A stretch of DNA of 64,000 nt from Escherichia coli (lineage in GTDB: Bacteria; Pseudomonadota; Gammaproteobacteria; Enterobacterales; Enterobacteriaceae). Where the stretch lies: the NCBI GenBank assembly GCA_025336685.1, contig GCA_025336685.1_4717.1; one strand, 5' to 3'. How positions within the stretch are numbered: position 1 is the stretch's first letter; each line of letters opens with the position of its first letter. Shown here in pieces: positions 5,534 through 59,616 of the stretch. A model generated the notes under the pieces. It saw nothing but the letters and a program-made list of their open reading frames with translations. It made no database searches and was not told where the DNA came from. Made by a program: the position numbers and the translations under genes.

Positions 5534-8440
5534 ATGAACGATATAAATAAAGGGCGCGTCGCCCTCGAACGTCAAATGAGCAATAATGACGTTGCGAAGG
5601 CACTCATGAACAAATTTGTCGCTCCTGCTCCGCAGTCACGTCTTTATAATACACGTGATGCGGAAGGAGCGAGCGGTCGTTTCGGGTTAGTTGTTCCCGA
5701 CCAAATGACGATGAACACGGTTACGCGTGCGACCGCGACAAACATCGAGGATAATAAAAACATCCTCGAGTTGTTCCCTGAACTTAAACGCGTGATGCAG
5801 ATCTACGTTGCCGCGTTGACGAACCCTAACGATCTTAAGACGGTCGAGATGTTTATCGATAGCGAAGATTTCCCGGGTAGGGTCGCAGAAATCGTTCAGC
5901 CGATGATCGATACCATCGACACGCATTTTAAGAATATCTATAAAATAAAGACGCTTATCCCTCGTATCATCGAAGACGTCTTCTTTATCAAGGGCAGTTA
6001 TAACTTCGTTGTTCTGCCAGAAAGCACGCTCGACCGCGCTATTAATGGTAACGGTCAACTGAAACTTGAAGAATACGGGTTTAGAGACAACCATTTCGCA
6101 AGTTGGGGGCTTTTAGGTAACGACAGTCGCAAACGTCACGAAAATCAATTACCTTCGACGGTCTCGATGGAAGATTATTTCTCGGGCGTTAATGAAACCA
6201 TACCGTACGATCCCGTTGTCCGTATAGACAGCATTAAGTTTACCAATACCCTGCTTCGTGATAAGGACGGTAAATTCATTGAAGCGAAGATCGATATTCC
6301 GGATATGGTTACGGTTGTCGATAACCCAGATATTCTCCGCATGCCTATTTTGCATCAACGTCGAGCAGCGACAGCGGTGCAACGCGCGTTACGCACGAAC
6401 ACGTTAGGAGGTAGTGGTTTGGTAACACTGTCAGGTGATCCAACCCTAACCGCTAACCGACGTGAGCTGTCGCAAGAACAGGTTAACGAGATTTGGAATA
6501 AACTCAACATCCAACGTCACACCAAGGTATCTCCCGTTTACGCGCTGGCAACCCCAGATACGCTTGATCGTCAAAGCGTTGGCCATCCTGGTGTGATGCA
6601 CGTACCACCTGAGGCATTAGAACCCGTACATGCACCAGGTGATCCGGAGAACCATATCGGGTATTTAGTTCAGTTGGATGAGTTTGGTTATCCGGTGCGT
6701 TTGGTTGAGGATGCTGCGTATTACAAGCAGTTGGAAGGTCGGTTGTCGAAGATCACCGCGGATATCGCGGGTACGTCAAGCAACGGCATGGCGAGCGAGA
6801 TGATCGGTGCGGCCAAGAACATGATCCAAGGTACGTCGTGTAATCAAGTAGACATGTCGGCCTTCGTGTCATCGTACGAATCATTGATGCAACGCTACAT
6901 CGTTGAACGAATCGTCAACGGTTATCTTGGTAGTGCGGTGGAGATCGGTGCGACATCATCGTTTTACCTATCGATGCTTGCTCGCAGTCTCGCCCACAAG
7001 CAGACCCGTGTTTTGTTTATTCCTCGAGAGATGGTGACATACATCGCTTATGAATACAACAAATACGGTATTGGTCGTTCACTGCTTGAAAGTACGAAGA
7101 TGATCTCGTCGCAACGAGCCATGCTCATGGTTCAAGAACTGATGGCGAAAATCAAAAGTTCGTTGAACTATACGACGCTAAGTGTAATGCTTGAAGATAC
7201 CGACAGAAACCCGGTCGATACCGTCGAACAGGCACTACATAGTTTCGCTCGCGTCTACCAGTCTGGTTTCCCGTTGGGTGAAACTAACCCAATGGACATC
7301 ATCAACGCATACGAACGAAGCTCGATTCGATTGAAGGTTGAGGGGAATAACCCACGCTTCCCGAAATTGAATACGGACGTCAGCGTTGAGCAGCGTAACT
7401 ATCAGTCTCCTGATAATGAATTGATGGATCGTTACCGTCGTGACCACTTCATGGGTTTGGGAGTTTCTCCAGAGATTATCGATACTTCCTACCAATCTGA
7501 ATTCGCGGCTTCTGTGATTACCGCTAACGCGATGCAAGAGAAGCAGTTCACGGTTTGTCGTGAGGTTATCACGAACGGATTAACTGATCACATCAAGAAG
7601 TACACGGCTTACAGTCCTGTATTGTTGACGTCGCTACGAAACACGGTTCGTGCGAACATGTCTAAGCTCTCCCAAGCACAATTGAAACAGCTTTTTGGTA
7701 GCGATTTCGAAAACGGCGTTATTCGTAACGTTAATGCTTATCAGGAGATCGACGACCAGTCAGCAACAATGGACCTGGATTATTCTAAACCGGAAGTTCA
7801 GGAAGTTATTGCCGATGCTTATGTATCCATGTTCTTAAACAGTCTGCAGGTGCGTTTACCGAACAGCAATGCTCGCCGCCTTGAAGATCAGGTACGTGAA
7901 TATAATCAGTACAAGGAAGCGATTACAGCGCAACTTGATGATTATTTAACGCCTGATTACGTCATGGGTCTGGGTGGGGTTGATGAAACAACACTGCAGA
8001 TGATCCGTGCATGCATTATTGGTACCGCGATGCGTACATGGGCAAAAGAGAACAACTTCAATCAGGAGCTGGCTGATCTCTTCAGTCTCGACGATAAGAA
8101 GAATGCCGTGCAAGATTGGAAACGTGCATCCATGGAACATATTGAAATCATGGGTAAATGCATGGGTGATTTTGCATTGTATATTCAGAATCTGACGAAG
8201 AAGATTGAAGAGAAGATGGGAGATCAAGCACAGGACGGCAGCGTTTCATCTGATGGTTCTTGGTCGTCTGATTCAAGTAGTGATACCGGTTCTTCTGATG
8301 ACTTTGGCGGTGATGATTTCGGGGATACCGATTTCGATACCGAAACGATGGAGGAAACCTCAACAGAGGAGACAACCACGTCTGAGGATACGACTACCGA
8401 TACAACGTCAGAAGACGAGACTTCAGGTGATATTGTCTAA
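5534..8440 (+). CDS. large hypothetical protein with acidic S/T/D/E-rich C-terminal tail (968 aa)
   Basis: ATG at 5534 with GGAG SD 9 nt upstream; 2.9 kb ORF; last ~70 aa low-complexity acidic. Confidence 0.85.
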   Translation: MNDINKGRVALERQMSNNDVAKALMNKFVAPAPQSRLYNTRDAEGASGRFGLVVPDQMTMNTVTRATATNIEDNKNILELFPELKRVMQIYVAALTNPNDLKTVEMFIDSEDFPGRVAEIVQPMIDTIDTHFKNIYKIKTLIPRIIEDVFFIKGSYNFVVLPESTLDRAINGNGQLKLEEYGFRDNHFASWGLLGNDSRKRHENQLPSTVSMEDYFSGVNETIPYDPVVRIDSIKFTNTLLRDKDGKFIEAKIDIPDMVTVVDNPDILRMPILHQRRAATAVQRALRTNTLGGSGLVTLSGDPTLTANRRELSQEQVNEIWNKLNIQRHTKVSPVYALATPDTLDRQSVGHPGVMHVPPEALEPVHAPGDPENHIGYLVQLDEFGYPVRLVEDAAYYKQLEGRLSKITADIAGTSSNGMASEMIGAAKNMIQGTSCNQVDMSAFVSSYESLMQRYIVERIVNGYLGSAVEIGATSSFYLSMLARSLAHKQTRVLFIPREMVTYIAYEYNKYGIGRSLLESTKMISSQRAMLMVQELMAKIKSSLNYTTLSVMLEDTDRNPVDTVEQALHSFARVYQSGFPLGETNPMDIINAYERSSIRLKVEGNNPRFPKLNTDVSVEQRNYQSPDNELMDRYRRDHFMGLGVSPEIIDTSYQSEFAASVITANAMQEKQFTVCREVITNGLTDHIKKYTAYSPVLLTSLRNTVRANMSKLSQAQLKQLFGSDFENGVIRNVNAYQEIDDQSATMDLDYSKPEVQEVIADAYVSMFLNSLQVRLPNSNARRLEDQVREYNQYKEAITAQLDDYLTPDYVMGLGGVDETTLQMIRACIIGTAMRTWAKENNFNQELADLFSLDDKKNAVQDWKRASMEHIEIMGKCMGDFALYIQNLTKKIEEKMGDQAQDGSVSSDGSWSSDSSSDTGSSDDFGGDDFGDTDFDTETMEETSTEETTTSEDTTTDTTSEDETSGDIV

Positions 8441-8860: not shown

Positions 8861-11419
8861 TTACTGCTCTTCACGTTCCAACAGATACTCGGAAGCGGTA
8901 ATACCGTTTACCGTACGTACCGCTTTCAGACGAGTATCGTCACTCAGAATCACGGTAACAGACTGCAGACCTTTTACTTTGGTCTCGAAGGTCTTGAATA
9001 CCTGATCCAGCATACGAGCAATGCTTGGGTTGGTTGCAGCCGATGCGTGAGTGTAACCGTTCTGGTTCAGCTTCAGAATCTTGGCGTTGGTTGGTACACG
9101 AAGAACAACATGCGGACGCATTGCGAACACACTGTGGTTAAACCAGTAAGCATCGTTACTATCTTCGTCAGTGACGATGTCTGGATTAACACGCATGTCT
9201 TCGGTAGCCGCACCCGCCAAACGACGTTCGATTTCGTCAGCATCCAGAGAGCCGTCCTTCTCCAGTTCTGCACGATACTCACTCATGGCAACCAGATGAC
9301 GTTCACGATTCGCTGCAGATTTTTCGTGAGCGGCTTTCAGGTAGTCATGCATGTTGTACAGTTCTGCCATGGAAAGACGAATGTTCCACTGACCTTCGCC
9401 GTCACGATTGCAGTAGAGACACTTCAGCATGTTGACCCAGGTGTAGTAGCAATTGGAGAACTCATCTTCAATGAACTTCTGATCCATTTTAAGATCGTGA
9501 ATCAGCCAACCGGACAGTTCTCCGATATCATCAACGAAGCTAGAAATGGTGGTTTCAGAGAAGTTCTTCGGTACGATACGTTTGATCAGCTTGTTAACGT
9601 CTTTGGTCATGCTATCATTCAGGAAATGCCAGATACGCAGAGGAATGACATCACGATACTGTTGCATGATCTGACGATAAGCTTTGATATCGTCGCTACG
9701 ACCTTTATCAATAGACAACGCGTCCAGGAATTCATGGATAGCATCCAGCTCTTTGTCGGTATAGGTTCCCAGATAGGAATTGACCGTGGCAAGGAATGCT
9801 AATGCGTCGTTTTGGTTGACGTCGGTGTTGGTCTGCTGAATGATCGCTACTGCAGCTTTGGTTTCAGCATCCTCAACGCTTGACGCTGCGATTGCGTCGG
9901 TAACAGTAAACAGTTTCATTTCGCGCTGTTCGCCGACAACGATCGGTTCGCGTTGAACCGGTTTGTTAAGACTAACGCGAACAACTTCTGCTTGCGCGAT
10001 ACGATCCAGTTTTACCATTTCCTGCTCCGCCATACGACGAGCGGTCGGATCTGATTCAAGTTCGATGTATTCCACTTCTTCCTCCGTGAGGGATGTAATG
10101 TCAACAATGGTTTCATGAAGAATTCCGTTTTCGTCGATACGTGCTCGACGAGCGAAGTGTCTGAAGTCATACAACGTTGGCCAGCGACAATTAGGCGCAT
10201 AGTCTTTGGCCTTCAGACGCATCTGCATAAATTCTTCATGTTGAACAACACGACCGTAACGCTTAGCATCTTCGGTCGCATCAATTGGATTAACGGTCTT
10301 TGTTACCGTAGCAGAACGAGCCGTACGAATGGGTTCCGGTTTAGTCTGCACTGGTTCAGGTTGAACGGATTTCTGTTGTCCAGCCTTAACATGCCATTCG
10401 GGTTCTTCGTACCGTTCAGCAAATTGCTCGGCTGCTGCAAAGATATCATTGATACCACCAATATCTCCTTCTGGATTCGTCGAATATATCCGTGGTTGCG
10501 GTGCCTCGTAACGCGGCGCTGAGGTAGCAGATGCGTCGTTAACGACAGGATCGTCATCGCCAACATCATACAAACGGTTGAACGCACAATCCTTCGAATC
10601 GATGTACGATGGAGTTTGTGGTTGGATAACCGTCGGTCGAGGCTGTGCGCCGTATCCCGGCATTGTTGGAGCCATACCACGCATAACTGCTGGGTTAGGT
10701 TGGTATTGTGGTTGTGGGTAGGTTCCGCCATACGTGGGATATGCAGGCTGTTGCGGTTGACCGTACCCACCACCAACCATCGCATTTGCTTGCGGTCCAC
10801 GGTAAGTCATCCCCAGTTGCATCACCTGTTGCTTCAGACCGCGGGACTTCTGCGCTATTTGTGCTAGACTCCCACTTTTATTTAGCTGCGTGTACTTATT
10901 CGCGGCTTCCGGGTTAATGCGCGATAATTCAATCGCACGATAATACTCCGGGTATTGATTGGCTTCAAAGAGCCACGTTACAAGGTGATACAGCGCAACT
11001 GTGCTCACAGCAGCAGAGACGATCTGGTCGTTGGACGCATTCTGCGGCATCGGGTTGATGTAAGAGAATACGTTCCAGCAACAGTCTTCAACAAGCGATT
11101 CCATCATCATGTCGTTATTGGTGTAACGTGAGACGAACTCGGTTTGTATTTTATCCTGTTGGGCGAAGTCTTTCAGGACATTGAAGACAGCTTGACGGAT
11201 TTTGACGATCGTCGCTTCTTGGGTGATGAAGTTATAGTTCTGCTGATATGATGGTTGCTGGTACTGTGGTGGTTGATAGGTGTTATTCGGGTATGCGCTG
11301 TACTGCGGTTGCTGGTACTGTTGTTGGCGAACCTGTTCAGCCGCATAATTAATCGTACTCGCATAAGGGTTTTCGTTGTAGCCCATTTGCTGATACATGT
11401 TGTTACTGCCATTATACAT
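8861..11419 (-). CDS. large hypothetical protein with Q/Y/P/G-rich low-complexity regions (852 aa)
   Basis: ATG at 11419; N-terminal 60 aa and an internal segment are QQPQY/GYGQPQ-type low complexity. Confidence 0.85.
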   Translation of the reverse strand: MYNGSNNMYQQMGYNENPYASTINYAAEQVRQQQYQQPQYSAYPNNTYQPPQYQQPSYQQNYNFITQEATIVKIRQAVFNVLKDFAQQDKIQTEFVSRYTNNDMMMESLVEDCCWNVFSYINPMPQNASNDQIVSAAVSTVALYHLVTWLFEANQYPEYYRAIELSRINPEAANKYTQLNKSGSLAQIAQKSRGLKQQVMQLGMTYRGPQANAMVGGGYGQPQQPAYPTYGGTYPQPQYQPNPAVMRGMAPTMPGYGAQPRPTVIQPQTPSYIDSKDCAFNRLYDVGDDDPVVNDASATSAPRYEAPQPRIYSTNPEGDIGGINDIFAAAEQFAERYEEPEWHVKAGQQKSVQPEPVQTKPEPIRTARSATVTKTVNPIDATEDAKRYGRVVQHEEFMQMRLKAKDYAPNCRWPTLYDFRHFARRARIDENGILHETIVDITSLTEEEVEYIELESDPTARRMAEQEMVKLDRIAQAEVVRVSLNKPVQREPIVVGEQREMKLFTVTDAIAASSVEDAETKAAVAIIQQTNTDVNQNDALAFLATVNSYLGTYTDKELDAIHEFLDALSIDKGRSDDIKAYRQIMQQYRDVIPLRIWHFLNDSMTKDVNKLIKRIVPKNFSETTISSFVDDIGELSGWLIHDLKMDQKFIEDEFSNCYYTWVNMLKCLYCNRDGEGQWNIRLSMAELYNMHDYLKAAHEKSAANRERHLVAMSEYRAELEKDGSLDADEIERRLAGAATEDMRVNPDIVTDEDSNDAYWFNHSVFAMRPHVVLRVPTNAKILKLNQNGYTHASAATNPSIARMLDQVFKTFETKVKGLQSVTVILSDDTRLKAVRTVNGITASEYLLEREEQ

Positions 11420-11454: not shown

Positions 11455-13251
11455 TCAATCGATTATGTCACGATCGTTAATTTCTACAATTTCTTCATCG
11501 AATCGACCGACGTCTTTCTTCAAGCCTGCATTTGTTGCTGCAACGTCATTTGCGATTTGTGGGGTAACGATTAACCGACCACGCTCATCGATAGGTGCGT
11601 ACATACTGAACTTCTGACGTCCGGTTGGTTCGGAGTGTGGAAGATTCAGATAGCTTGCACAGAACGGGATGGAACCACTAACCAAACGACTCTCGTCAGC
11701 CAATGCAGCACCGCCTGCGTTTTGGCTCTGGAGAACAACATGCGTGCTCACTTTGAACAGCATGCAATCACCAGGTGACTGAATCGATGTTGCCACTTTC
11801 TCACGTTTATCACGATTGCTCTGGATATTGAGAATCGCTTCCGTTGCAACTTGATTTCGCAACGCCTTCTGTACATCGCGATTGGTCATCTCTTTACGGT
11901 TGTTCTGTCGTTTACCACGTTCCGTGGTTTTAAGATGGAACCCCAGTTTAAAGATGCTTTTACGCACATCCTCCATGACATATTCCAACACCATCAATTC
12001 CTTACCGAACATCGTCGTGGTATCAACACGACTCATTTCGATAGTAACATTGTCAATCAGATACGCCATAAATTCGTAGAAGTCGTCGCAAGGAATATTT
12101 TCCTGTTTGAACTTCTTCTGTTGAATTTCGTCAACGTAAAGATCGAGACTGTCGATGTGGTGGTTTACATCACGCAACAAACGCGCATCCGCATTGTTGT
12201 TATTAAAGATAATCAAACCGAGTAATGTACGCCAATGGTCTGGCGCATTCGCGAACTCTTCAACCGGATAGTCTTCCGGGAAACGATCGTAATAACGGTC
12301 GATGAGATATAAGAACGCACCGACAAGGCCAAGAACAATACGTTCCGTACCTCCACGTCTTACAGCGATTTGAATATCAGGATGTTTATAACGTACAGCG
12401 TTAGCGCTACGGCTTTTACCGCTTTTGCTGATACTAAAGCCTTTAGGAATAACCCCCATGGTGCGATAGATTACCCATTGGTCGCGCGGAAAATCACGTT
12501 CAGCAAGGTTCCGTCCGGTTACGGCTTCGACACCTGCAAAACGTCGGAAACATTCACCCACCCCATACTTCGCAAAGAGATAATGACCCAGTGTGGTTAC
12601 GCTGGTGTGGTTGATGTTGTCACCGTTCACTTTACTTTGTTTGGTAAGATGATAGATTTGCGACCAGGGTAACGACAGATAATGACGATAATCGATACCC
12701 GTTGGTGTATCATTGCTCAGGAACTGATACGGTGTACGTTTAACCGTGATTTTGTCACGCGGAAGCATGATGAACGCCATGTCTTTCGTGTAACTGATTA
12801 CAGGGTCAGCGAGCACCGCACTGAGAATGAAGTTCGCACCACGTAGACGCATTTTACCACCCTGACCTACTGCGGGCAATAGGAGAGGATGTCGGATAAT
12901 GCAGTAGTCCTTTCCCGGCTCACGGCGGTCACCTGATTCCATCGCACCGTACCAGCGGAATTCTAGCATCACCATAAACACGTCGGAAGGTGCAAGGTCG
13001 AAGGTCAGCTTACCGCTATCCTTCCCTTTGGTTTTCTTTCCTCCGCTTAAGTAGTGGAACTGTTCGCGGGCCATACAACGACGTAGGCCATGATACACCA
13101 GATCCTTAGGTAAACTATCTTTGCTGTTCCGCCAAAGACGATCAACATAGGACTCAACATCTTGCATCTTATCGACGACGATGTTGCGTGCTATCTTCTC
13201 GTTCATCTTCGGTGCAAGCTCAGCGACAGCTTTGCAGAATCTAGGATCCAT
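11455..13251 (-). CDS. hypothetical protein (598 aa)
   Basis: ATG at 13251 with AGGAG SD. Confidence 0.85.
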   Translation of the reverse strand: MDPRFCKAVAELAPKMNEKIARNIVVDKMQDVESYVDRLWRNSKDSLPKDLVYHGLRRCMAREQFHYLSGGKKTKGKDSGKLTFDLAPSDVFMVMLEFRWYGAMESGDRREPGKDYCIIRHPLLLPAVGQGGKMRLRGANFILSAVLADPVISYTKDMAFIMLPRDKITVKRTPYQFLSNDTPTGIDYRHYLSLPWSQIYHLTKQSKVNGDNINHTSVTTLGHYLFAKYGVGECFRRFAGVEAVTGRNLAERDFPRDQWVIYRTMGVIPKGFSISKSGKSRSANAVRYKHPDIQIAVRRGGTERIVLGLVGAFLYLIDRYYDRFPEDYPVEEFANAPDHWRTLLGLIIFNNNNADARLLRDVNHHIDSLDLYVDEIQQKKFKQENIPCDDFYEFMAYLIDNVTIEMSRVDTTTMFGKELMVLEYVMEDVRKSIFKLGFHLKTTERGKRQNNRKEMTNRDVQKALRNQVATEAILNIQSNRDKREKVATSIQSPGDCMLFKVSTHVVLQSQNAGGAALADESRLVSGSIPFCASYLNLPHSEPTGRQKFSMYAPIDERGRLIVTPQIANDVAATNAGLKKDVGRFDEEIVEINDRDIID

Positions 13252-13290: not shown

Positions 13291-14724
13291 TTACTTTTTC
13301 GATGACGCCTTCTCAAGAATCTTGAAAAAGGTCATACCTATACCGACAACAGCCGCGGTTATACTCGCAGCGGCTTTCCAAACATCGACGTTACGTTGAC
13401 GTCGTGCTTCTTCCGCTTCACGTTGTCTTTTTGCCTCTTCATCACGTCGACGTATCTCAGCAGCAAACTCGTCATGCTTACGTTTGGCTTCTTCGTCTCG
13501 ACGACGAAGTTCAGCGACGAATTCTTCATGTTTGCGTTTAGCCTCATCATCACGACGTTTTAAATCAGCTTGATAATCTTCGTGTATTTGTCTACGTAGA
13601 TCATCTTGACGTTTCATTTCGGCTTGGTGTTGTTCCATCCTACGTTTTTGTTCGTCTTTAAGCTGATCGAGTTCGGCTTTATGTTGTTCGTCGCGCAGCT
13701 TTGCGTCGGCGCGATGCGCTTCATGCATCTGTGCGATAACTGCCTTGTGTTCATCCGCCATACGTCGCATTTCAGCCATCACCCCTTTAAGGGTTTCTTC
13801 TGACGACTTACGTTCGTAGCTGCGTTGGTCGAAATCATTTTTGTAGGCTTCTTTTTGGATGGGATCGCGCCAATGCAATGCCGATTCACGCGTCGGAAAA
13901 ACATTGTACTTCCACATCTCTTTTTCCAAATCTTCGACCGGTACGAAGATGGAGTCATTATTCCCGAAGGTAACCAACATACCTGGCGCGCCTGCTCCAT
14001 TCGTTGGTTTTATTTCGAACGCTTTCCCCAGCACGTTAACCCATAGGCTATACGGATTATGAAAGTCGGGTGGCGTCCAGTGGATAGTGAGTTGCGTTCC
14101 GAGAATCCGGAAACCCTCTGTCTTTCCTGTTAAACTACGCGCACATGTTGCGATGTAGGGGTGATCAATCCCTTTCGTAACATGGTCTGCGCTTTTGTAT
14201 TCTCCTTTAACTTTTACGATTGCCACGTTGATTTGCGCGACATAAATAGGTTGATTAAAGTTCAACGTGTTGAGGTCAATTTGACATATCTCGTCCAGCG
14301 TATCGTACCAGTCTTGCTGGTCTAATAGACGCGGTATTTTCTCTGTGTTAACGATGCGACGGATATGCGGTTTCCTTATCGCGTAACCTGTACCATTTTT
14401 AACACGGAGTATATCCCGACGTCTACCCGCGTAGACGAAGTTTCTGAATGCACCATTCGCATTAGATACGTCATGGCTGTCAACTATTACAGGACTACGA
14501 AATTTTGAACGTCGTACGATCCTGAATGTATTACTGTCCTCAACTCTACCAGGAATGTACTGGAACATATTGTCGGAGGTGATAACCAACACGGTATGGC
14601 CGGATTCATTAATACATGCCCACCCTAATTCCAGGTCATACAACGGTTCAGCATAACCGTCAATGCGATATGCGTACCATCCCCACGGTTCGAACGCGGT
14701 ATCACATATTGGCATGGAGGGCAT
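13291..14724 (-). CDS. hypothetical protein with C-terminal charged coiled-coil repeats and a terminal hydrophobic helix (477 aa)
   Basis: ATG at 14724 with GGAGGTGA SD; three RRRDEEAKRKHxEFxAE repeats then WKAAASITAAVVGIGMTFFKIL. Confidence 0.85.
   Translation of the reverse strand: MPSMPICDTAFEPWGWYAYRIDGYAEPLYDLELGWACINESGHTVLVITSDNMFQYIPGRVEDSNTFRIVRRSKFRSPVIVDSHDVSNANGAFRNFVYAGRRRDILRVKNGTGYAIRKPHIRRIVNTEKIPRLLDQQDWYDTLDEICQIDLNTLNFNQPIYVAQINVAIVKVKGEYKSADHVTKGIDHPYIATCARSLTGKTEGFRILGTQLTIHWTPPDFHNPYSLWVNVLGKAFEIKPTNGAGAPGMLVTFGNNDSIFVPVEDLEKEMWKYNVFPTRESALHWRDPIQKEAYKNDFDQRSYERKSSEETLKGVMAEMRRMADEHKAVIAQMHEAHRADAKLRDEQHKAELDQLKDEQKRRMEQHQAEMKRQDDLRRQIHEDYQADLKRRDDEAKRKHEEFVAELRRRDEEAKRKHDEFAAEIRRRDEEAKRQREAEEARRQRNVDVWKAAASITAAVVGIGMTFFKILEKASSKK
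13407..13572 (-). repeat. imperfect tandem DNA repeats (about 45-48 bp unit) encoding the charged peptide repeats of 13291-14724
   Basis: Repeated cgtcgacg...ttcttcatg...gcgttt units visible; coordinates approximate. Confidence 0.4.
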
Positions 14725-28432: not shown

Positions 28433-31400
28433 TTACTTGTAGGCACCACAATGTGCTTTGATGAGGAAAAGCACCGCTTGCATCGGTTTATTGAACTGTT
28501 GCCATAACGTCAATGCCGGATGGAACAACCAATCTTCCAGGCCAAGAACAATACCGTAGTTAACGACATTATTAACATCGTTCTCAACGTTGAGTTCGCT
28601 ATCCAGGAATTTATCGATTGAACGCAGGGCCTGCATGGCGTTGTCGGCAATAAGCCACGCTTCATGCGCTTCACGAGCCGCACGCAGCAATGCTTCCAGT
28701 TCGCCGGTGCTGGCTACCGGTAACTCCTCACTGGTGAGGTCGTCAGAAACCGTAAACTGACGGTTGATACCAGTGTAGATCCACTGCATCAGTTTCGCTG
28801 CTTCCTCGTTCGGGTTGTTACGCGTTGTCGCATAGGTCGCGCTCATTTTCACGATATGCGTTTCACCAAGATACGCTTTGGACCCAACGCCTTTACGATC
28901 GCTGTCTTTCCACGGTTGTACGGTAGCGACCATGAGCTTATCCCATTTCTGAATAGGAATACGCTTCAGACCAACAACCGATCCGGCGGATGTTTCGGAC
29001 TGGTTGCTCTTCCGCACTTCGCTGAGCTCACGATCGATAGCAACGATTAATTCACGCGTCATGTTACCAAGCATTTTGATTTCACCCAACGCAGCGATGA
29101 GCTTCTTCACATCGGTAATAGGTTCACCACCGATGGTAAGATGACGGATGAAACGTTTCAGAATAATCCGTTCTGCTGCTGGGTTACCACGACGCGCTTT
29201 AGCCAACGCTTGCTGTGTTTCGGCGAACAGCTTATCCCATGGAGCCGTAGCGGCGGTATAGTAACGGTGGTTGGTTTCAATCCAGTTACCGATACGGTTG
29301 ACCGCACTCTTAACGGTATCCATGAACCCTTCCATCGCAATTTCGGTGGCTTCGACGTTACCCTGGAAGTTATCAGGACCGATCTCGCGTGCCGCTACCA
29401 GAATACCTTCCACTGCACTCACCGCGTGACGACCGATAGCCAGATTTCGCTGCGCTTCTTCAGCACGCTCAACGAATTCCACTACCGCAGGATCGTCAAC
29501 GATTTCCGCCTCGGCAACAACACGTGTACCTGCATCGCCTTCCAGTGTCTCGATAGTGACAACCGGATCGTTTTCACCAGCAACATCCTGGTACTCTTCC
29601 TGTTTGAGTTCGCCGTTATCGGCCGCTGCGACAGCGGTGAGTATACGGACGGTAACATCACCGAGTTCTTTCGCAGCGAATCCGTAGACGGTACATGCTG
29701 TTGTCGCAAAGTTCATCAGTGTGCGTGTGCGTTTAACGATGTAGCCAACGCCGTAGTCACTACCGTTCTTATCGATGTCGCGGATTAACCGTTCAGCTGT
29801 CTCCTGAAGTTGTGTAGCTGCTTTCAGAAGGTCTTCGTCAAACAGTTTCGTTGACGCATCGATCAGCATATCGACGCTAACGTTAGACGGTACGGCATCA
29901 TCCTGCTGTTTCATGGCGCTAAGTTCATCACGGAACTTACGAATACCGTCTAAAGCGGCGTCGGCGCTATGTCCGAACGCGGCCACGCCAGACATTGTTG
30001 TTGCTGTCAGCATGTCCGTATCAGCGTTTGGACTTTCGCCTTCTTTAAGATCCTTCAGCTGGTCGAAGAACTTACGGGATGCTTCAGCGATACGTTTGCT
30101 GTCTTTTACCGCGTTTACGATTTTATCAACCGATTTAGCGTCGTTCGCAAGCAGCGTGTCGAGTTTGTTCCATTCGATGTCGACTTTCTTTTCATCCGAA
30201 GTATTACTCGGTGGAGGAAGCAGTTTCATCACTGGTGCTGTGCGTTGTTCTTTGGTGAGCTTACCAGCCTTCTCTTCGATTTTCTTTTTATTAACACCGA
30301 AAAGTTTTCTTAGGCGTGCCACGATTGCTTTTAAGAACTTCACAACCGCTTCGTAAACCGATTTCAGAATCTGTTTAAAGCGACCTGGCTGCTTTTCCCC
30401 GTCTTCCAGATTGAGATCGCTATTTAGTGCGATATCAAGCTGTTTGTACGATTCCATGATGTATTCGTCTTTGATTTCAGGACGAATCTCGAAGCTTTCC
30501 ATCGGACCCTCAGCCGGACGGAATTCCATTTTCAGTTCGCCTTGCAGAGTAGGGTCGACAATGGCGATAGCTTCACCCTGACCATCAGCGTTAAAGCGCT
30601 CAGCGTAACGAGTACGACGAACAATAACACTCTTATCCCCATCAAGACGACGTACCACCATGGTGCCAGGAATGTACGGTTGTTCTGTTTCAATGACGGT
30701 TACATCTGTTTCACCTTCACCGAGAATAACAGAAGTGCGCTGTTCAACAACAGGAACATCTAATACACCGCGGGCTTCCAGCTCTTGATGAATTTCGAAC
30801 GACTCTTGTTTCAGATCTTCATCTTCTTCGTTTTCGTCGTCTTCATCGTCACCTTTGGTGGTTTTGGTGTCGGTAGCATCAGCATCCGTGTCTGCGTTGG
30901 TAGCTTCTTCGGACGCAGGTTCGGTGGTGCCGTCCTCGGTAGGCGTTTCATCAGCGTTATCGACGTCAACATCACCTTGCAGTTCTGTTTCCTGAGCAAC
31001 TGCTTCGGCTTTCTGCTCACCGGTGTTACCGTCATTAGCGTCGACAGCAGGTTGTTCGTCAGCGACGGTATCTTCAACCTTTTCTACTTTCTCCACGACA
31101 CGTTTAATCACGGTGACTTTGATGGGTTCTTCCGTTGTTTTGGTTTCTGGTGTTGCGTCGGCTACCGCAGGTGCTGTTTCAACAACAGGTTCTGCTTTTT
31201 CCGGTTCGACGACACTACCTTTAACACCTTCGGTGGTTTCTGCAGGTTGCGCTGCCTGTTCGATTTGTGCCGGATTGGTCGGATCGATGGCATTAGCCGC
31301 ATCCTGAATCTTGTTCTTCAGGTTGTCACGGTCAGCGCTAACGGTCGGGTCATTGGTCACTTTCGGTGCCGGTGTTTCGGTCGGCGCGTTTGCCGGATAC

Positions 31401-31798
31401 GGGTTCTTCGGCTCTTCACCAGGTGCGGTTGGTACCGCGATCAGAACGAACGGTTGAACATCGTTACCGTCTTCCATGGTCACGCCACCGTTGCTCGGCG
31501 TGAAACGGATTCGCAAGCTACCATCAATAGGACGGGTAACAATAACAGCACGTACGACATCCTCACCGTTTTCATCCGTGCTACGAATCACACGAACGGC
31601 GTCATCAACAGTAGCCCCTTCCTCGAGCGTATCTGATTCGATCGTCGCTTCGATGCTGTCTGGTCGTGCCGCTGTAGGTAATGCGATCACTTGCTCTTCT
31701 TTATCGGTAGAAAGCGTTGCTTTGACTTCGATAGGTGTATCGCCGCTTTCCAGGTTAAGATGCGACTTACGCATCAGATCAGCTAACGATTTTTTCAT
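28433..31798 (-). CDS. very large hypothetical virion-associated protein with internal duplication and acidic T/D/E-rich linker (1121 aa)
   Basis: ATG at 31798 with GAGGAA SD; repeated RxxIVxRxxDG..R(I/M)xFxP segments; contains MESFE/IMESY motifs shared with the head-internal paralogs. Confidence 0.9.
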   Translation of the reverse strand: MKKSLADLMRKSHLNLESGDTPIEVKATLSTDKEEQVIALPTAARPDSIEATIESDTLEEGATVDDAVRVIRSTDENGEDVVRAVIVTRPIDGSLRIRFTPSNGGVTMEDGNDVQPFVLIAVPTAPGEEPKNPYPANAPTETPAPKVTNDPTVSADRDNLKNKIQDAANAIDPTNPAQIEQAAQPAETTEGVKGSVVEPEKAEPVVETAPAVADATPETKTTEEPIKVTVIKRVVEKVEKVEDTVADEQPAVDANDGNTGEQKAEAVAQETELQGDVDVDNADETPTEDGTTEPASEEATNADTDADATDTKTTKGDDEDDENEEDEDLKQESFEIHQELEARGVLDVPVVEQRTSVILGEGETDVTVIETEQPYIPGTMVVRRLDGDKSVIVRRTRYAERFNADGQGEAIAIVDPTLQGELKMEFRPAEGPMESFEIRPEIKDEYIMESYKQLDIALNSDLNLEDGEKQPGRFKQILKSVYEAVVKFLKAIVARLRKLFGVNKKKIEEKAGKLTKEQRTAPVMKLLPPPSNTSDEKKVDIEWNKLDTLLANDAKSVDKIVNAVKDSKRIAEASRKFFDQLKDLKEGESPNADTDMLTATTMSGVAAFGHSADAALDGIRKFRDELSAMKQQDDAVPSNVSVDMLIDASTKLFDEDLLKAATQLQETAERLIRDIDKNGSDYGVGYIVKRTRTLMNFATTACTVYGFAAKELGDVTVRILTAVAAADNGELKQEEYQDVAGENDPVVTIETLEGDAGTRVVAEAEIVDDPAVVEFVERAEEAQRNLAIGRHAVSAVEGILVAAREIGPDNFQGNVEATEIAMEGFMDTVKSAVNRIGNWIETNHRYYTAATAPWDKLFAETQQALAKARRGNPAAERIILKRFIRHLTIGGEPITDVKKLIAALGEIKMLGNMTRELIVAIDRELSEVRKSNQSETSAGSVVGLKRIPIQKWDKLMVATVQPWKDSDRKGVGSKAYLGETHIVKMSATYATTRNNPNEEAAKLMQWIYTGINRQFTVSDDLTSEELPVASTGELEALLRAAREAHEAWLIADNAMQALRSIDKFLDSELNVENDVNNVVNYGIVLGLEDWLFHPALTLWQQFNKPMQAVLFLIKAHCGAYK

Positions 31799-37071: not shown

Positions 37072-38397
37072 TTACTGCTGTGCTGCGTCAGCCGGTTTCT
37101 CGGCCGCCTGGCCGCCGTACTCTTTCAGCATTTTAGCAGCGCCATCCAGGACAGCGTTACCTGCCTGAACACCGTATTTCATCAGACCAGTCTGTGGGTT
37201 CACGTAGCAGGAACGTGCGTCTTTCAGTGCAGACAGTACAGCTTGAACACGCTGTTTTTCCTGAGCGGAAACTTCGCCTTTCTTAGACAGATCAGCTTCC
37301 ATTGCGTCGCCGAATTTAACAGCGTCTTTGAAGCCCTGGGATTTCTTACCGATGTTGCCTTTCAGCGCCAGCAGTTTGTCAGCCAGTACTTCAACACCGC
37401 TAACCGCAGCGGCCAGCTGATTCAGGGACAGGACGGTAGCTTCAACTTCTTTTGCTTCACCGGAGCGTTCCCAGGTTACTTTACCATCGTTGGCTTTGAA
37501 ACCCCAGCCCGCAGGACCAGCAACGTCAGCAATCGCCGGAGCGTTCAGTTTATCGGCGTACTCGGTGTGAGATTTAGCAACAACAGTGTTGACGAATTTA
37601 TCAGCACGATCGTCAGCAGCCTTCATTGCTTTCTCGAAGGTGTCGGCGATTTTGGTCGCACCGGTAACCAGATCGTCGCCACCGATGTAACCTGAAATGC
37701 CACTACCCAGGGTAACTTTGGCATTTTTAGCAGCGCCTTTACGCTTGGCGATCATTTCTTTCAGTTTAGCAGCGCGTGCTTTCAGTTTGGTCGCGCCGTC
37801 GAAGATGCGATCCATGAACTTCACGAAGGTTTCCCAGGAAGTTTTCAGGAAGTTCTTGATGGTTGCCCACAGTTTCTGCCACCATTTTTGTTCTTCCAGG
37901 AAGATCATGTTGGTTGCATCGTAACGGGAAGCAGAACCACCGAAGCTTTCGAAGGACGGCATGGTTTCCGGCAGTTTGAAACCGATAGTACCACACAGGC
38001 GTTTCAGGTTACGCATGTGTTCCTGAGCGGTTTGTGCAGACATACCACCGTCTTTCAGGTAGCTTTCGGTTGCAACAACGGTTTCCGTCAGTTCATCCAT
38101 GGCTTCATCCATGGCTTCTGCGGTTTCGTCGTCTTTTGCAATTTCGATAACAACAGCGTCAACCTGCTCGATATCGCCACGAACTTCGATAGCCAGTTCG
38201 GTTTCAGCTGCAGTATCTTCAGCGATTTCAGCGCGTTCGGTCAGTTCAGCTACAACGGTTTCATCTGCTGCTGCTGCGGCATCAGCTGCCGGTTCTGCTT
38301 CAACGGTTGCCGCTGCATCCGGATCGATCTCAGCAGCCAGTTGAACCAGCTGTGCGTTAGATGGATTTGCGACAAGACGATCAAAAATAGAAGGCAT
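37072..38397 (-). CDS. abundant head-internal protein paralog, codon-optimised (441 aa)
   Basis: ATG at 38397 with AAAGGAAA SD; strongly optimised codon usage like the capsid candidate; Ala/Glu-rich acidic N-terminus; SFESFGG motif. Confidence 0.9.
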   Translation of the reverse strand: MPSIFDRLVANPSNAQLVQLAAEIDPDAAATVEAEPAADAAAAADETVVAELTERAEIAEDTAAETELAIEVRGDIEQVDAVVIEIAKDDETAEAMDEAMDELTETVVATESYLKDGGMSAQTAQEHMRNLKRLCGTIGFKLPETMPSFESFGGSASRYDATNMIFLEEQKWWQKLWATIKNFLKTSWETFVKFMDRIFDGATKLKARAAKLKEMIAKRKGAAKNAKVTLGSGISGYIGGDDLVTGATKIADTFEKAMKAADDRADKFVNTVVAKSHTEYADKLNAPAIADVAGPAGWGFKANDGKVTWERSGEAKEVEATVLSLNQLAAAVSGVEVLADKLLALKGNIGKKSQGFKDAVKFGDAMEADLSKKGEVSAQEKQRVQAVLSALKDARSCYVNPQTGLMKYGVQAGNAVLDGAAKMLKEYGGQAAEKPADAAQQ

Positions 38398-58977: not shown

Positions 58978-59616
58978 TTATGCAAAGCGACGCATGTAAC
59001 CCGCCAGATAGTTACGCGTATCGAAGTAGGCGATTTCAGGAATTGCGATATTAAGGTCGATAGCGCGGATTTCAACTTGGCGACGGCTTTCATCATAGAT
59101 CGCATCCATCAGACGCAGTACTGTCAGGAAAGCCATGCGGGTATGGTAGTCCAGCGGCATGTTATCGATACCGCGATACAGATAACGGTTTGCGTTGAAC
59201 GCCCCTTCGCGGTTATCTTTCCAGATCTTCAGAATATCAGCAAAGGCGGTGCGGAAAACCTCAGGATTATCCACATCCAGTAACGCACGGAAAGCAGACA
59301 TTAAAGATCGCTGATGACGGATCAAGGACTGCGGCGTTTGCGGCATGGTCGGACCCATTTCTTCCGCATATTTCTGGAACGGGGCAACCAGGGTTGCGGC
59401 ACGAGAAGCAACGATAGTGTTAGCCGGGGATTCACTCACCGCTGGTTTTGCAGGCTTTTCTTCAACGGTGGTTTCCTTCTTCTCAACAGCAACCGTTTCC
59501 GGTTGTGCTACAACGTTGTTGATTGGAGCAGCAGCCACACCATTTTCCGCGGTGGTCTCTACTGCTGTAATCTTTTCTTCCATTTGTGCGGAACGTTGGT
59601 CTTTATTCTTGCTCAT
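58978..59616 (-). CDS. hypothetical protein (212 aa)
   Basis: ATG with AGGAAA SD. Confidence 0.8.
   Translation of the reverse strand: MSKNKDQRSAQMEEKITAVETTAENGVAAAPINNVVAQPETVAVEKKETTVEEKPAKPAVSESPANTIVASRAATLVAPFQKYAEEMGPTMPQTPQSLIRHQRSLMSAFRALLDVDNPEVFRTAFADILKIWKDNREGAFNANRYLYRGIDNMPLDYHTRMAFLTVLRLMDAIYDESRRQVEIRAIDLNIAIPEIAYFDTRNYLAGYMRRFA

Follow-up and report, generated by a model that had tools for sequence, protein, structure and literature searches.

Judged from profile comparisons and gene order, the open reading frame at 8861..11419 of the window (the whole stretch of 64,000 nt of DNA that was analysed) is a Goslar-clade ortholog of JADA (Pa36 gp316 / phiKZ_124, PDB 9RP3). Its two low-complexity blocks correspond to a lineage-specific Q/Y/N/P extension of 64-70 aa before the N-domain and to the first ~70 aa of the interdomain linker. 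Taking all data together, we slightly favour the reading that the low-complexity arms of this JADA ortholog act as weakly adhesive interaction modules. The following features were assigned:

8861..11419, minus strand: JADA ortholog (Goslar gp38 / phiKZ_124 / RAY gp4 family), complete ORF of 852 aa plus stop codon
11228..11419, minus strand: low-complexity extension of the N-terminus (aa 1-64), rich in Q/Y/N/P and preceding the JADA N-domain
10820..11209, minus strand: JADA N-terminal helical domain (aa 71-200), assigned by hhalign, AF2 helices and family conservation
10604..10819, minus strand: P/Q/G/Y-rich low-complexity block (aa 201-272), first part of the interdomain linker
10205..10603, minus strand: rest of the disordered linker (aa 273-405), net acidic, with a short conserved helix at ~aa 321-343
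8864..10204, minus strand: JADA C-terminal domain (aa 406-852), assigned by a leave-clade-out HMM and a profile match to PDB 9RP3
9140..9409, minus strand: Goslar-lineage insertion in the C-domain (aa 671-760), a predicted helical hairpin
11455..13251, minus strand: nvRNAP beta-subunit fragment (Goslar gp39 / PhiKZ gp123), upstream neighbour of JADA in the same orientation

Sequence similarity and gene content identify the window as coming from a Goslar-like chimallivirus, i.e. a nucleus-forming jumbo phage. The window shares 93% nucleotide identity with Escherichia phage Goslar (genus Goslarvirus), and the ORF is the counterpart of Goslar gp38 (Goslar_00038; 93% nucleotide and 95% amino acid identity). 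In the GenBank and RefSeq records of Goslar, gp38 is still named 'hypothetical protein'. The ORF begins with ATG, has an AAGGA ribosome-binding site 9 nt 5' of the start and lies directly downstream of the nvRNAP beta gene, which is separated from the start of JADA at 11419 by a gap of 35 nt. The product of 11455..13251 matched phrog_2943 'polymerase' (E=5.5e-120) and, by tblastn, the RAY 'nvRNAP beta subunit 1' and PhiPA3 gp139. Its gene is core gene cg36 in the published chimallivirus core list, and the genes flanking JADA in the window are the core genes cg35-cg37. Promoter and terminator scans gave results at chance level.

Standard BLAST and word-based searches miss the JADA family. In Pfam and PHROGs scans, no match of the window protein exceeded the threshold; comparison with 50,697 phage records by megablast and tblastn recovered Goslar alone, and word-indexed protein searches yielded only close relatives together with a few distant ones. 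Phmmer run exhaustively on 1.84 billion representatives added one extra cluster (P0005, 38% identity). Pa36 JADA was missed by single-sequence BLAST and phmmer because its pairwise identity to the window protein is only ~15%. As single-sequence searches were insufficient, homology was traced by synteny-anchored loci and profiles. A Pfam match to Cas9_C_2 (E=0.003, 17.8 bits, cutoff 27) was sub-threshold, fell within the lineage-specific helical insertion and was treated as chance. Other members of the JADA family match the unnamed PHROGs 15010, 36323, 35635 and 11639, and the PhiPA3 copy, gp140, is mis-annotated; its gene shows an apparent frameshift at about 126.4-126.7 kb of the PhiPA3 genome.

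In all but a few of 80 chimallivirus loci, the nvRNAP beta gene was directly followed by an ORF of 600-940 aa, and the loci without it mostly ended just after the RNAP gene. The same order, with JADA downstream of a co-oriented nvRNAP subunit gene, exists in Pa36. By pairwise phmmer, 73 of the syntenic proteins including PhiPA3 gp140 and RAY gp4 formed one cluster, whose members matched in both folded domains. SPN3US gp78 is syntenic and of the same architecture, but its homology was not demonstrable. A C-domain HMM built from homologs outside the Goslar clade, among them Pa36 JADA, recognised aa 408-639 of the window protein (E=1.7e-16 at Z=1e6, 66 bits). Headed by the window sequence, the C-domain profile of the family retrieved 9rp3_A 'Gp316/JADA' from the PDB (E=3e-40, chain residues 363-720); 9RP3 was reached by this family profile only, single-sequence phmmer against the PDB giving no match. 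For the N-domain, which spans residues 1-170 in Pa36, the leave-clade-out HMM did not suffice by itself, but hhalign of the Goslar-clade N-region with the N-domain of the other homologs yielded a probability of 94.5% (E=7.4e-8) and placed window aa 71-197 on template positions 6-123 of 126. Furthermore, Goslar_00038, PHIKZ124 and RAY_4 share one column in the ortholog table of Prichard et al. Two literature records were not used: 'gp38' of the EPI-vesicle preprint is PhiKZ gp38, which is unrelated to Goslar gp38, and the binding of PhiKZ gp124 to host DnaX/FtsZ given in the Churi paper was not traceable to primary data.

Structure models were obtained with AF2 from alignments of 5 and 9 sequences, both of low confidence (pLDDT 39 and 48). 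Helices were predicted over aa 56-203 in the N-region, and the block aa 201-272 begins exactly at the end of the N-domain. The whole segment aa 201-405 is poorly alignable across the family, is classed as disordered by the charge-hydropathy plot and had a pLDDT below 50 in a model that is poor as a whole. Due to the low confidence of the models, the disorder call rests on composition, on the alignment of the family and on what has been published for Pa36. Residues 273-405 have a net charge of -6 and contain an AF2 helix at 323-335, whose motif is kept in the P0005 relative (38% identity). The insertion at aa 671-760 showed an occupancy of 0.03-0.46 in most 10-residue blocks of the family alignment (0.67 at aa 731-740) and formed the highest-pLDDT helices in both models. 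When the model of aa 386-852 (pLDDT 48) was compared with 350,542 PDB chains by Foldseek, 9rp3_A and 9rp3_B ranked first (E=7e-3, prob 0.85) with TM-scores of only 0.15-0.18; this ranking was discounted because of the low confidence of the models.

JADA has been studied in Pa36 (Muralidharan et al., Mol Cell 2026; PMC12931631). It is an early, abundant and reportedly essential protein restricted to the Chimalliviridae, which localises to the early-infection (EPI) vesicle and triggers Avs5 immunity (PMC12931631). At 10 min, Pa36 JADA belongs to the most abundant proteins, and in the course of infection it forms foci that coincide with EPI vesicles; expressed before or without infection, it gives diffuse fluorescence (PMC12931631). 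The purified protein is a soluble dimer according to SEC, mass photometry and cryo-EM (PMC12931631). Its C-domain mediates dimerisation, is alone sufficient for the activation of Avs5 (a Sir2 NADase) and has been suggested to bind DNA, and its linker, unseen in the structure, is described only as 'disordered or flexible' (PMC12931631). Since the C-domain alone activates Avs5, the arms are dispensable for this read-out. ASO knock-down of PHIKZ124 lowered the PFU modestly and strongly perturbed phage transcription at 30 min, a phenotype that may include an effect on the adjacent nvRNAP gene. phiKZ_124 is listed as 'non-core', which, like the modest effect on PFU, weighs against the reading favoured here. 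Early expression, essentiality, EPI foci and the triggering of Avs5 are known only from the Pa36 and phiKZ orthologs.

The first-pass annotation had described Q/Y/P/G-rich, almost uncharged blocks at the N-terminus and in the interior of the protein, and both the ORF and the composition were found exactly so. Residues 1-64 comprise 23% Q, 19% Y, 16% N and 9% P (Q/Y/P/G/N total 70%) with three charged residues (4.7%; net charge -1), and residues 201-272 comprise 19% P, 15% Q, 15% G and 11% Y (Q/Y/P/G/N total 64%), likewise with three charged residues (4.2%; net charge +3). In binomial tests against the amino acid usage of the window, the enrichment of Q/Y/P/G/N had P values of 4e-16 (aa 1-64) and 5e-14 (aa 201-272) and the charge depletion in the two blocks P values of about 1e-5 to 1e-6. 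In the charge-hydropathy plot, both blocks are placed in the disordered region. That such a bias might be typical of the proteins of this genome, the objection named along with the original description, did not hold: the highest Q+Y+P+G+N fraction in a 50-aa window was 0.72 for the JADA ortholog, which ranked first among 55 non-overlapping ORFs with a median of 0.34 (SD 0.07) and a runner-up of 0.50. A tandem repeat at the DNA level was found under neither block, which indicates that the blocks are not a recent slippage expansion.

The term 'prion-like' applied earlier is fair for the N-block, whose composition correlates with that of Sup35N (r=0.87) and whose tyrosines, one per ~5 residues, are evenly spaced: the 13 aromatics had a gap CV of 0.37 vs 0.79 in shuffles (P=0.002). 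For the tyrosine gaps of the internal block, a CV of 0.57 was determined (P=0.18). Both blocks have the composition by which prion-like domains are recognised, i.e. at least ~60 aa rich in Q/N/Y/G/S/P with few charged or aliphatic residues. The aromatics of the blocks are tyrosines and one Phe (aa 64), and FG dipeptides are absent from aa 1-64 and aa 201-272. From their sequence, condensate formation by these blocks is plausible.

The composition had also been called unusual for a phage protein. This is correct within the window, but not within the JADA family, in which the interdomain linker (64-404 aa) is compositionally biased in 76 of 76 homologs, nor for chimalliviruses generally, the N/G-rich tail of ChmC being a precedent. 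By their chemistry, 33 of the linkers are polar/aromatic, 24 intermediate and 19 of an R/D/G mixed-charge, RD-repeat/RGG-like type with almost no K; a plain G/S-type spacer occurred in none of the 76. Some other JADA clades possess GGFNQGG-type aromatic-glycine repeats, which the Goslar clade lacks. The N-extension is longest in the Goslar clade (70-84 aa), and across the family its charged fraction correlates with the charged fraction of the linker (Spearman 0.63, uncorrected for the shared ancestry of the homologs).

Both blocks are conserved in five orthologs. Residues 1-64 showed indels between orthologs and a dN/dS of 0.06-0.11, and residues 201-272 were nearly invariant across orthologs of 79-98% identity, with a dN/dS of 0.055-0.18; for both blocks dS was saturated. 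The folded domains had a dN/dS of 0.02-0.04 in two close comparisons. In the comparison with L006, the dN/dS of the N-domain was 0.16, and the dN of the internal block (0.077) was lower than that of the N-domain (0.168). These values indicate purifying selection on both blocks in the Goslar clade. On account of the low dN/dS, the regular tyrosine spacing of the N-block and the biased linkers in all 76 homologs, we regard the arms as functional rather than junk.

The competing explanation that survives best, possible but clearly less probable than adhesive arms, is that of a passive tether: the blocks would be entropic spacers that set the reach from the N-domain to the dimeric C-domain, and their composition would be due to mutational drift under the sole constraint of remaining soluble and unfolded. 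The large differences in linker length and composition between clades also fit a loosely constrained spacer, and linkers of 64-404 aa with wildly different chemistry are barely alignable among the homologs. Yet they follow 'sticky' grammars (Y/F/W in Q/N/G/P, or RD/RGG without K) and not those of G/S/T/E/K spacers. The indels in the N-block of close orthologs would be expected of a tether as well, but in the Goslar clade a dN/dS of 0.05-0.18 with saturated dS shows constraint at the sequence level, and against L006 the internal block is even more conserved than the N-domain. Similarly, the tyrosine spacing is unremarkable in the internal block (P=0.18) but regular in the N-block, and in the N-terminal extension there is nothing for a tether to connect. 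The diffuse distribution of Pa36 JADA expressed alone, its solubility as a dimer and the triggering of Avs5 by the C-domain alone are the remaining points in favour of the tether.

In the favoured reading, a JADA dimer, in which helical N-domains are joined to the dimeric C-domain by linkers of ~200 aa, would present four low-complexity arms. These arms would be flexible, multivalent and weakly adhesive modules with tyrosine 'stickers' in a 'spacer' background of Q/P/G/N, rather than passive spacers or an autonomous prion. They may help to recruit and concentrate the abundant early JADA together with ligands of its N-domain at the early-infection vesicle and the place of the first nvRNAP transcription. 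In other clades, RD-repeat/RGG-type linkers could reach the same end, which points to an RNA- or transcription-associated hub.

Autonomous prion-like phase separation, in which the Q/Y/P/G blocks alone would make JADA condense or form amyloid-like assemblies, is unlikely. Four arms per dimer, each with a block of at least 60 aa that has very low charge and a composition near Sup35N and FUS-LC, together with the even spacing of tyrosines, would suit such a process, but Pa36 JADA, which has the same polar linker type, is diffuse before infection and dimeric when pure. These Pa36 data argue against autonomous phase separation of the Pa36 ortholog. JADA is highly abundant at 10 min and focal during infection, and ChmC provides a precedent; however, recruitment suffices as an explanation, given that the foci are found at EPI vesicles. 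An even wider proposal sees JADA as a scaffold: its arms would form a condensate-like hub on the vesicle of early infection or the nascent nucleus, the hub would couple the earliest nvRNAP transcription to the hand-off of mRNA, and this function would have been kept family-wide while the arms switched between prion-like and RGG/RD chemistry. We consider this proposal improbable at present. A nucleic-acid or transport interface, in which the arms would contact RNA or create an FG-nucleoporin-like selective phase that lets early mRNA out of, or proteins into, the EPI vesicle or nascent shell, is very improbable: RD-repeat/RG-RGG linkers, as they are typically seen in disordered regions that bind RNA, in 19 of 76 homologs, GGFNQGG-type repeats in other clades, linkage to the nvRNAP gene, perturbed phage transcripts upon knock-down and the open question in the literature of how mRNA exits the EPI vesicle speak for it, but the window blocks have almost no positive charge and no FG dipeptides, polar and mixed-charge linkers would hardly form one common selective phase, and JADA has no known association with membranes or pores, the published suggestion being DNA binding by the C-domain.

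Should the condensate-hub proposal be true, it would provide a bacterial-virus counterpart of the transcription/RNA condensates of FET proteins and would account for the essentiality, the abundance and the focal distribution of JADA. The parts of JADA hitherto unseen and called 'disordered or flexible' are conserved low-complexity arms of sticker-spacer or RGG/RD chemistry that are under purifying selection. Thereby they offer a hypothesis open to testing, namely that multivalent recruitment or condensation takes place at the infection vesicle and is tied to early transcription, and the clear JADA ortholog gp38 in Goslar opens a genetically tractable E. coli system.

The window protein resembles Pa36 JADA in its homologous N- and C-domains, the long disordered linker between them and the position after a co-oriented nvRNAP beta gene. 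It is longer (852 aa vs 721 aa), its Q/Y-rich N-extension of 64-70 aa exceeds that of Pa36 JADA in length and tyrosine content, its linker is rich in Y/P/Q/G instead of G/P/Q/M, and its C-domain contains a helical insertion of ~90 aa unlike Pa36 JADA. ChmC (PhiPA3 gp61 / Goslar gp176) likewise is an early protein of chimalliviruses that has a folded domain and a polar low-complexity region, and it forms RNA condensates via its N/G-rich tail in vitro (PMC11077065). ChmC differs in belonging to an unrelated family with a Whirly fold and in having an N/G-rich C-terminal tail in place of a Q/Y/P-rich N-extension and linker; no sequence relationship to the window protein was seen in Pfam-type profile scans. 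ChmC may serve as a working analogy for the possible role of the JADA arms. FG-nucleoporin-like domains are defined by repeated FG/GLFG/FxFG motifs on a polar background free of charge, and the window blocks do not contain such motifs. With Sup35 N and the FUS LC domain, the blocks share a richness in Q/N/Y/G/P, ~5% charged residues and, in the N-block, a Tyr every ~5 residues. This is an analogy of composition without homology, and the blocks are shorter (64-72 aa), serine-poor and proline-rich. Prion-like domains and RGG/RD regions represent the two classic condensate-associated chemistries, and the linkers of the JADA family exhibit either the one or the other.

The ORF at 8861..11419 (-), with a ribosome-binding site AAGGA 9 nt 5' of its ATG, encodes an 852-aa product that begins with MYNGSNNMYQQMGY. 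It shares 93% (nt) and 95% (aa) identity with Goslar_00038, annotated as a hypothetical protein in the genome of the nucleus-forming Escherichia jumbo phage vB_EcoM_Goslar. The richness in Q, Y, P and G with few charges noted in the first-pass annotation was borne out: the N-block (aa 1-64) contains 23% Q, 19% Y, 16% N and 9% P, the internal block (aa 201-272) 19% P, 15% Q, 15% G and 11% Y, each with three charged residues. Among 55 non-overlapping ORFs called in the window, the protein gave the highest maximum of Q+Y+P+G+N per 50 aa (0.72; runner-up 0.50, median 0.34, SD 0.07), and block enrichment relative to the window's own amino-acid usage yielded binomial P values of 4e-16 and 5e-14. Thus, the bias is not typical of this genome. 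Both blocks fell on the disordered side of a charge-hydropathy plot, and no DNA-level tandem repeat was found under either of them. Aromatic residues are more regularly spaced than in shuffled sequences in the N-block (13 residues; gap CV 0.37 vs 0.79, P=0.002) but not in the internal block (eight residues; P=0.18). N-block composition correlated with Sup35N (r=0.87) and FUS-LC (r=0.64), values that are only indicative.

Attempts were made to trace the family of the protein. Pfam and PHROGs scans gave no match, tblastn against all phage records found Goslar alone, and word-indexed protein searches only relatives at 79-98% identity. Even exhaustive phmmer against 1.84 billion representatives added just one cluster (P0005, 38% identity). 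Since single-sequence searches failed, the conserved gene for the beta subunit of the non-virion RNA polymerase (nvRNAP) was used as anchor, and 80 chimallivirus loci were fetched. In all but a few, a co-oriented ORF of 600-940 aa lies directly 3' of the RNAP gene; the exceptions mostly end right after that gene. By all-against-all phmmer (E<1e-5), 73 of the downstream proteins formed one cluster including our protein, RAY gp4 and PhiPA3 gp140, which is similar to PhiKZ gp124. The matches covered the N- and C-terminal domains, not the biased regions. A profile of the C-terminal domain matched a single PDB entry, 9RP3 'Gp316/JADA' (E=3e-40), while profile-profile comparison of the N-domain gave a probability of 94.5% (E=7e-8, aa 71-196). 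When an HMM was built solely from non-Goslar-clade homologs, with Pa36 JADA (sequence from PP813861) among them, the protein scored E=1.7e-16 (Z=10^6). Independently of this, Prichard et al. 2023 tabulate Goslar_00038, PHIKZ124 and RAY_4 in one column of orthologs, although their core list lacks the gene. Judged by these profiles, the protein is a JADA ortholog, its gene adds a hitherto unannotated member to a family whose description dates from 2025-26, and the two blocks are the JADA N-extension and linker. The layout is as follows.

aa 1-64/70: Q/Y/N/P extension
aa 71-200: JADA N-domain
aa 201-272: P/Q/G/Y block, start of the linker
aa 273-405: rest of the linker, net-acidic and disordered
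aa 406-852: JADA C-domain
aa 671-760 (9140-9409, -): Goslar-lineage helical insertion within the C-domain

Elsewhere variable, the linker contains a short, acidic and amphipathic helix, GINDIFAAAEQFAERYEEPEW (aa 321-343; 10391-10459, -), which is conserved in P0005 as MQDLYNLAERFAVEEEDPMW and is a candidate binding motif. The insertion, missing from most JADA homologs, is predicted to form a long helical hairpin and had the highest pLDDT of either AF2 model, both being of low confidence (pLDDT 39 and 48). A sub-threshold Pfam match to Cas9_C_2 in this insertion was taken as chance. Foldseek with a low-confidence model ranked 9rp3_A first among 350,542 chains, the TM score being just 0.15-0.18.

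Pa36 gp316 received the name JADA, short for 'Jumbo phage Avs5 Defense Activator'; it is specific to Chimalliviridae, early-expressed, reported as essential and, at 10 min, one of the most abundant proteins (Muralidharan et al., Mol Cell 2026, PMC12931631). Its C-domain, a homodimer of novel fold (2.1 Å cryo-EM), suffices to activate the Avs5 Sir2 NADase, and involvement in early transcription or in binding DNA was suggested (PMC12931631). Prior to infection, the protein shows a diffuse distribution; its foci form at the vesicles of early phage infection (EPI vesicles; PMC12931631). In a PhiKZ antisense screen, knock-down of PHIKZ124 led to fewer plaques, less ChmA and, at 30 min, strongly altered phage transcription; knock-down of 122 also disturbs phage transcription. 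The neighbourhood in the window, which further includes the major capsid gene, comprises:

5534..8440 (+): portal-like virion protein (phrog_3004)
11455..13251 (-): nvRNAP beta fragment (phrog_2943, E=5.5e-120; RAY 'nvRNAP beta subunit 1'; PhiKZ gp123)
13291-14724 (-): gp40/PhiKZ gp122 homolog, core gene cg35

The lowest-entropy segment of the window is a 60-aa tail of the portal-like protein (aa 905-968), almost purely S/D/T/E/G (…SSDGSWSSDSSSDTGSSDDFGGDDFGDTDFDTETMEETSTEETTTSEDTTTDTTSEDETSGDIV). Over aa 330-477 of the gp122 homolog, a unit of ~16 aa (RRRDEEAKRKHEEFVAEL-like) occurs three times in tandem within a highly charged coiled-coil region, after which comes a C-terminal hydrophobic helix. 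Acidic A/E/D/T-rich stretches, of another flavour than the JADA blocks, occur in the proteins at 28433-31798 (-; aa 265-345), 37072-38397 (-; aa 10-80) and 58978-59616 (-; aa 5-75).

To delimit the linker, N- and C-domain HMMs were mapped onto 76 homologs. It measures 64-404 aa and is compositionally biased in every one of them. Hence the sequence, regarded earlier as unusual for a phage protein, is an outlier within the window proteome but typical within the JADA family. Polar/aromatic linkers (33/76) have at most 15% charged residues and are composed of Q/G/N/P/M with 6-12% Y/F/W in most members; some polar clades show GGFNQGG-type repeats. Mixed-charge linkers (19/76; R 18-26%, D+E 16-34%, K 0-6%) consist of RD repeats and RG/RGG boxes, e.g., RRGGRGRDRDDRDDRRGGGRGRG, and 24 are intermediate. 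Q/N/Y/P/M-rich N-terminal extensions of 40-84 aa recur in several clades, the longest in the Goslar clade. The charged fractions of extension and linker correlate (Spearman 0.63, P=1e-8, ignoring phylogeny). We found no paper on JADA low-complexity sequence or condensates nor on Goslar gp38, and the family-wide pattern and its conservation appear to be unreported in the searchable literature.

Codon comparisons with three Goslar-clade genomes gave dN/dS values of 0.06-0.11 (N-block), 0.055-0.18 (internal block), 0.02-0.16 (N-domain) and 0.04 (C-domain). Against L006, which encodes an 863-aa variant, dN of the internal block (0.077) was below that of the N-domain (0.168) despite saturated dS. 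By this measure, both blocks are under purifying selection. Divergence from the 863-aa variant of L006 (7832-10420) is mosaic within the gene: dS is ~1-2.9 over the first 272 codons and just 0.22 over the C-domain, a pattern suggestive of recombination among Goslar-like phages, the breakpoint lying in the linker.

The PhiPA3 homolog (L002:9649-11760; NC_028999 ~125.9-128.0 kb) is split over two reading frames within the linker. In tblastn with Pa36 JADA, the frame-1 alignment spans aa 2-167 and the frame-2 alignment aa 251-721, indicating that the gp140 annotation (261 aa) covers a truncated product; the C-domain has no annotation of its own and is overlain by 'gp141', an antisense ORF of implausible sequence. 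A sequencing error in the repetitive stretch or a real frameshift could be the cause. SPN3US gp78 (L004:9793-11469, 558 aa) occupies the JADA gene position and has the same layout (helical N-domain, G-rich and P/Q-rich low-complexity stretch, C-domain), with no sequence similarity detectable by the JADA HMMs of either domain. This protein is a strongly diverged JADA or else a replacement.

A JADA dimer would present four low-complexity arms. Tyrosines set at even distances in a Q/P/G/N background, and likewise the RD/RGG chemistry of other clades, are patterns expected of disordered regions that are multivalent and weakly adhesive. The most parsimonious interpretation of these sequences is that the arms may recruit the abundant early protein and its N-domain cargo to the EPI vesicle or early transcription site, or concentrate them there, multivalently and with low affinity. 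Given how much the linkers differ in chemistry and length among clades, a purely passive tether is still a serious rival. Autonomous condensation, in line with the condensate-associated composition noted in the first-pass annotation, is less likely, since the Pa36 ortholog stays diffuse if expressed by itself and behaves in vitro as a soluble dimer (PMC12931631); the Goslar version is the tyrosine-rich one. ChmC is a chimallivirus example of condensation through a low-complexity region. An FG-nucleoporin-like role is not supported, the protein having no FG motifs. The conserved low-complexity pattern offers a concrete handle on this phage protein, which is reported as essential.
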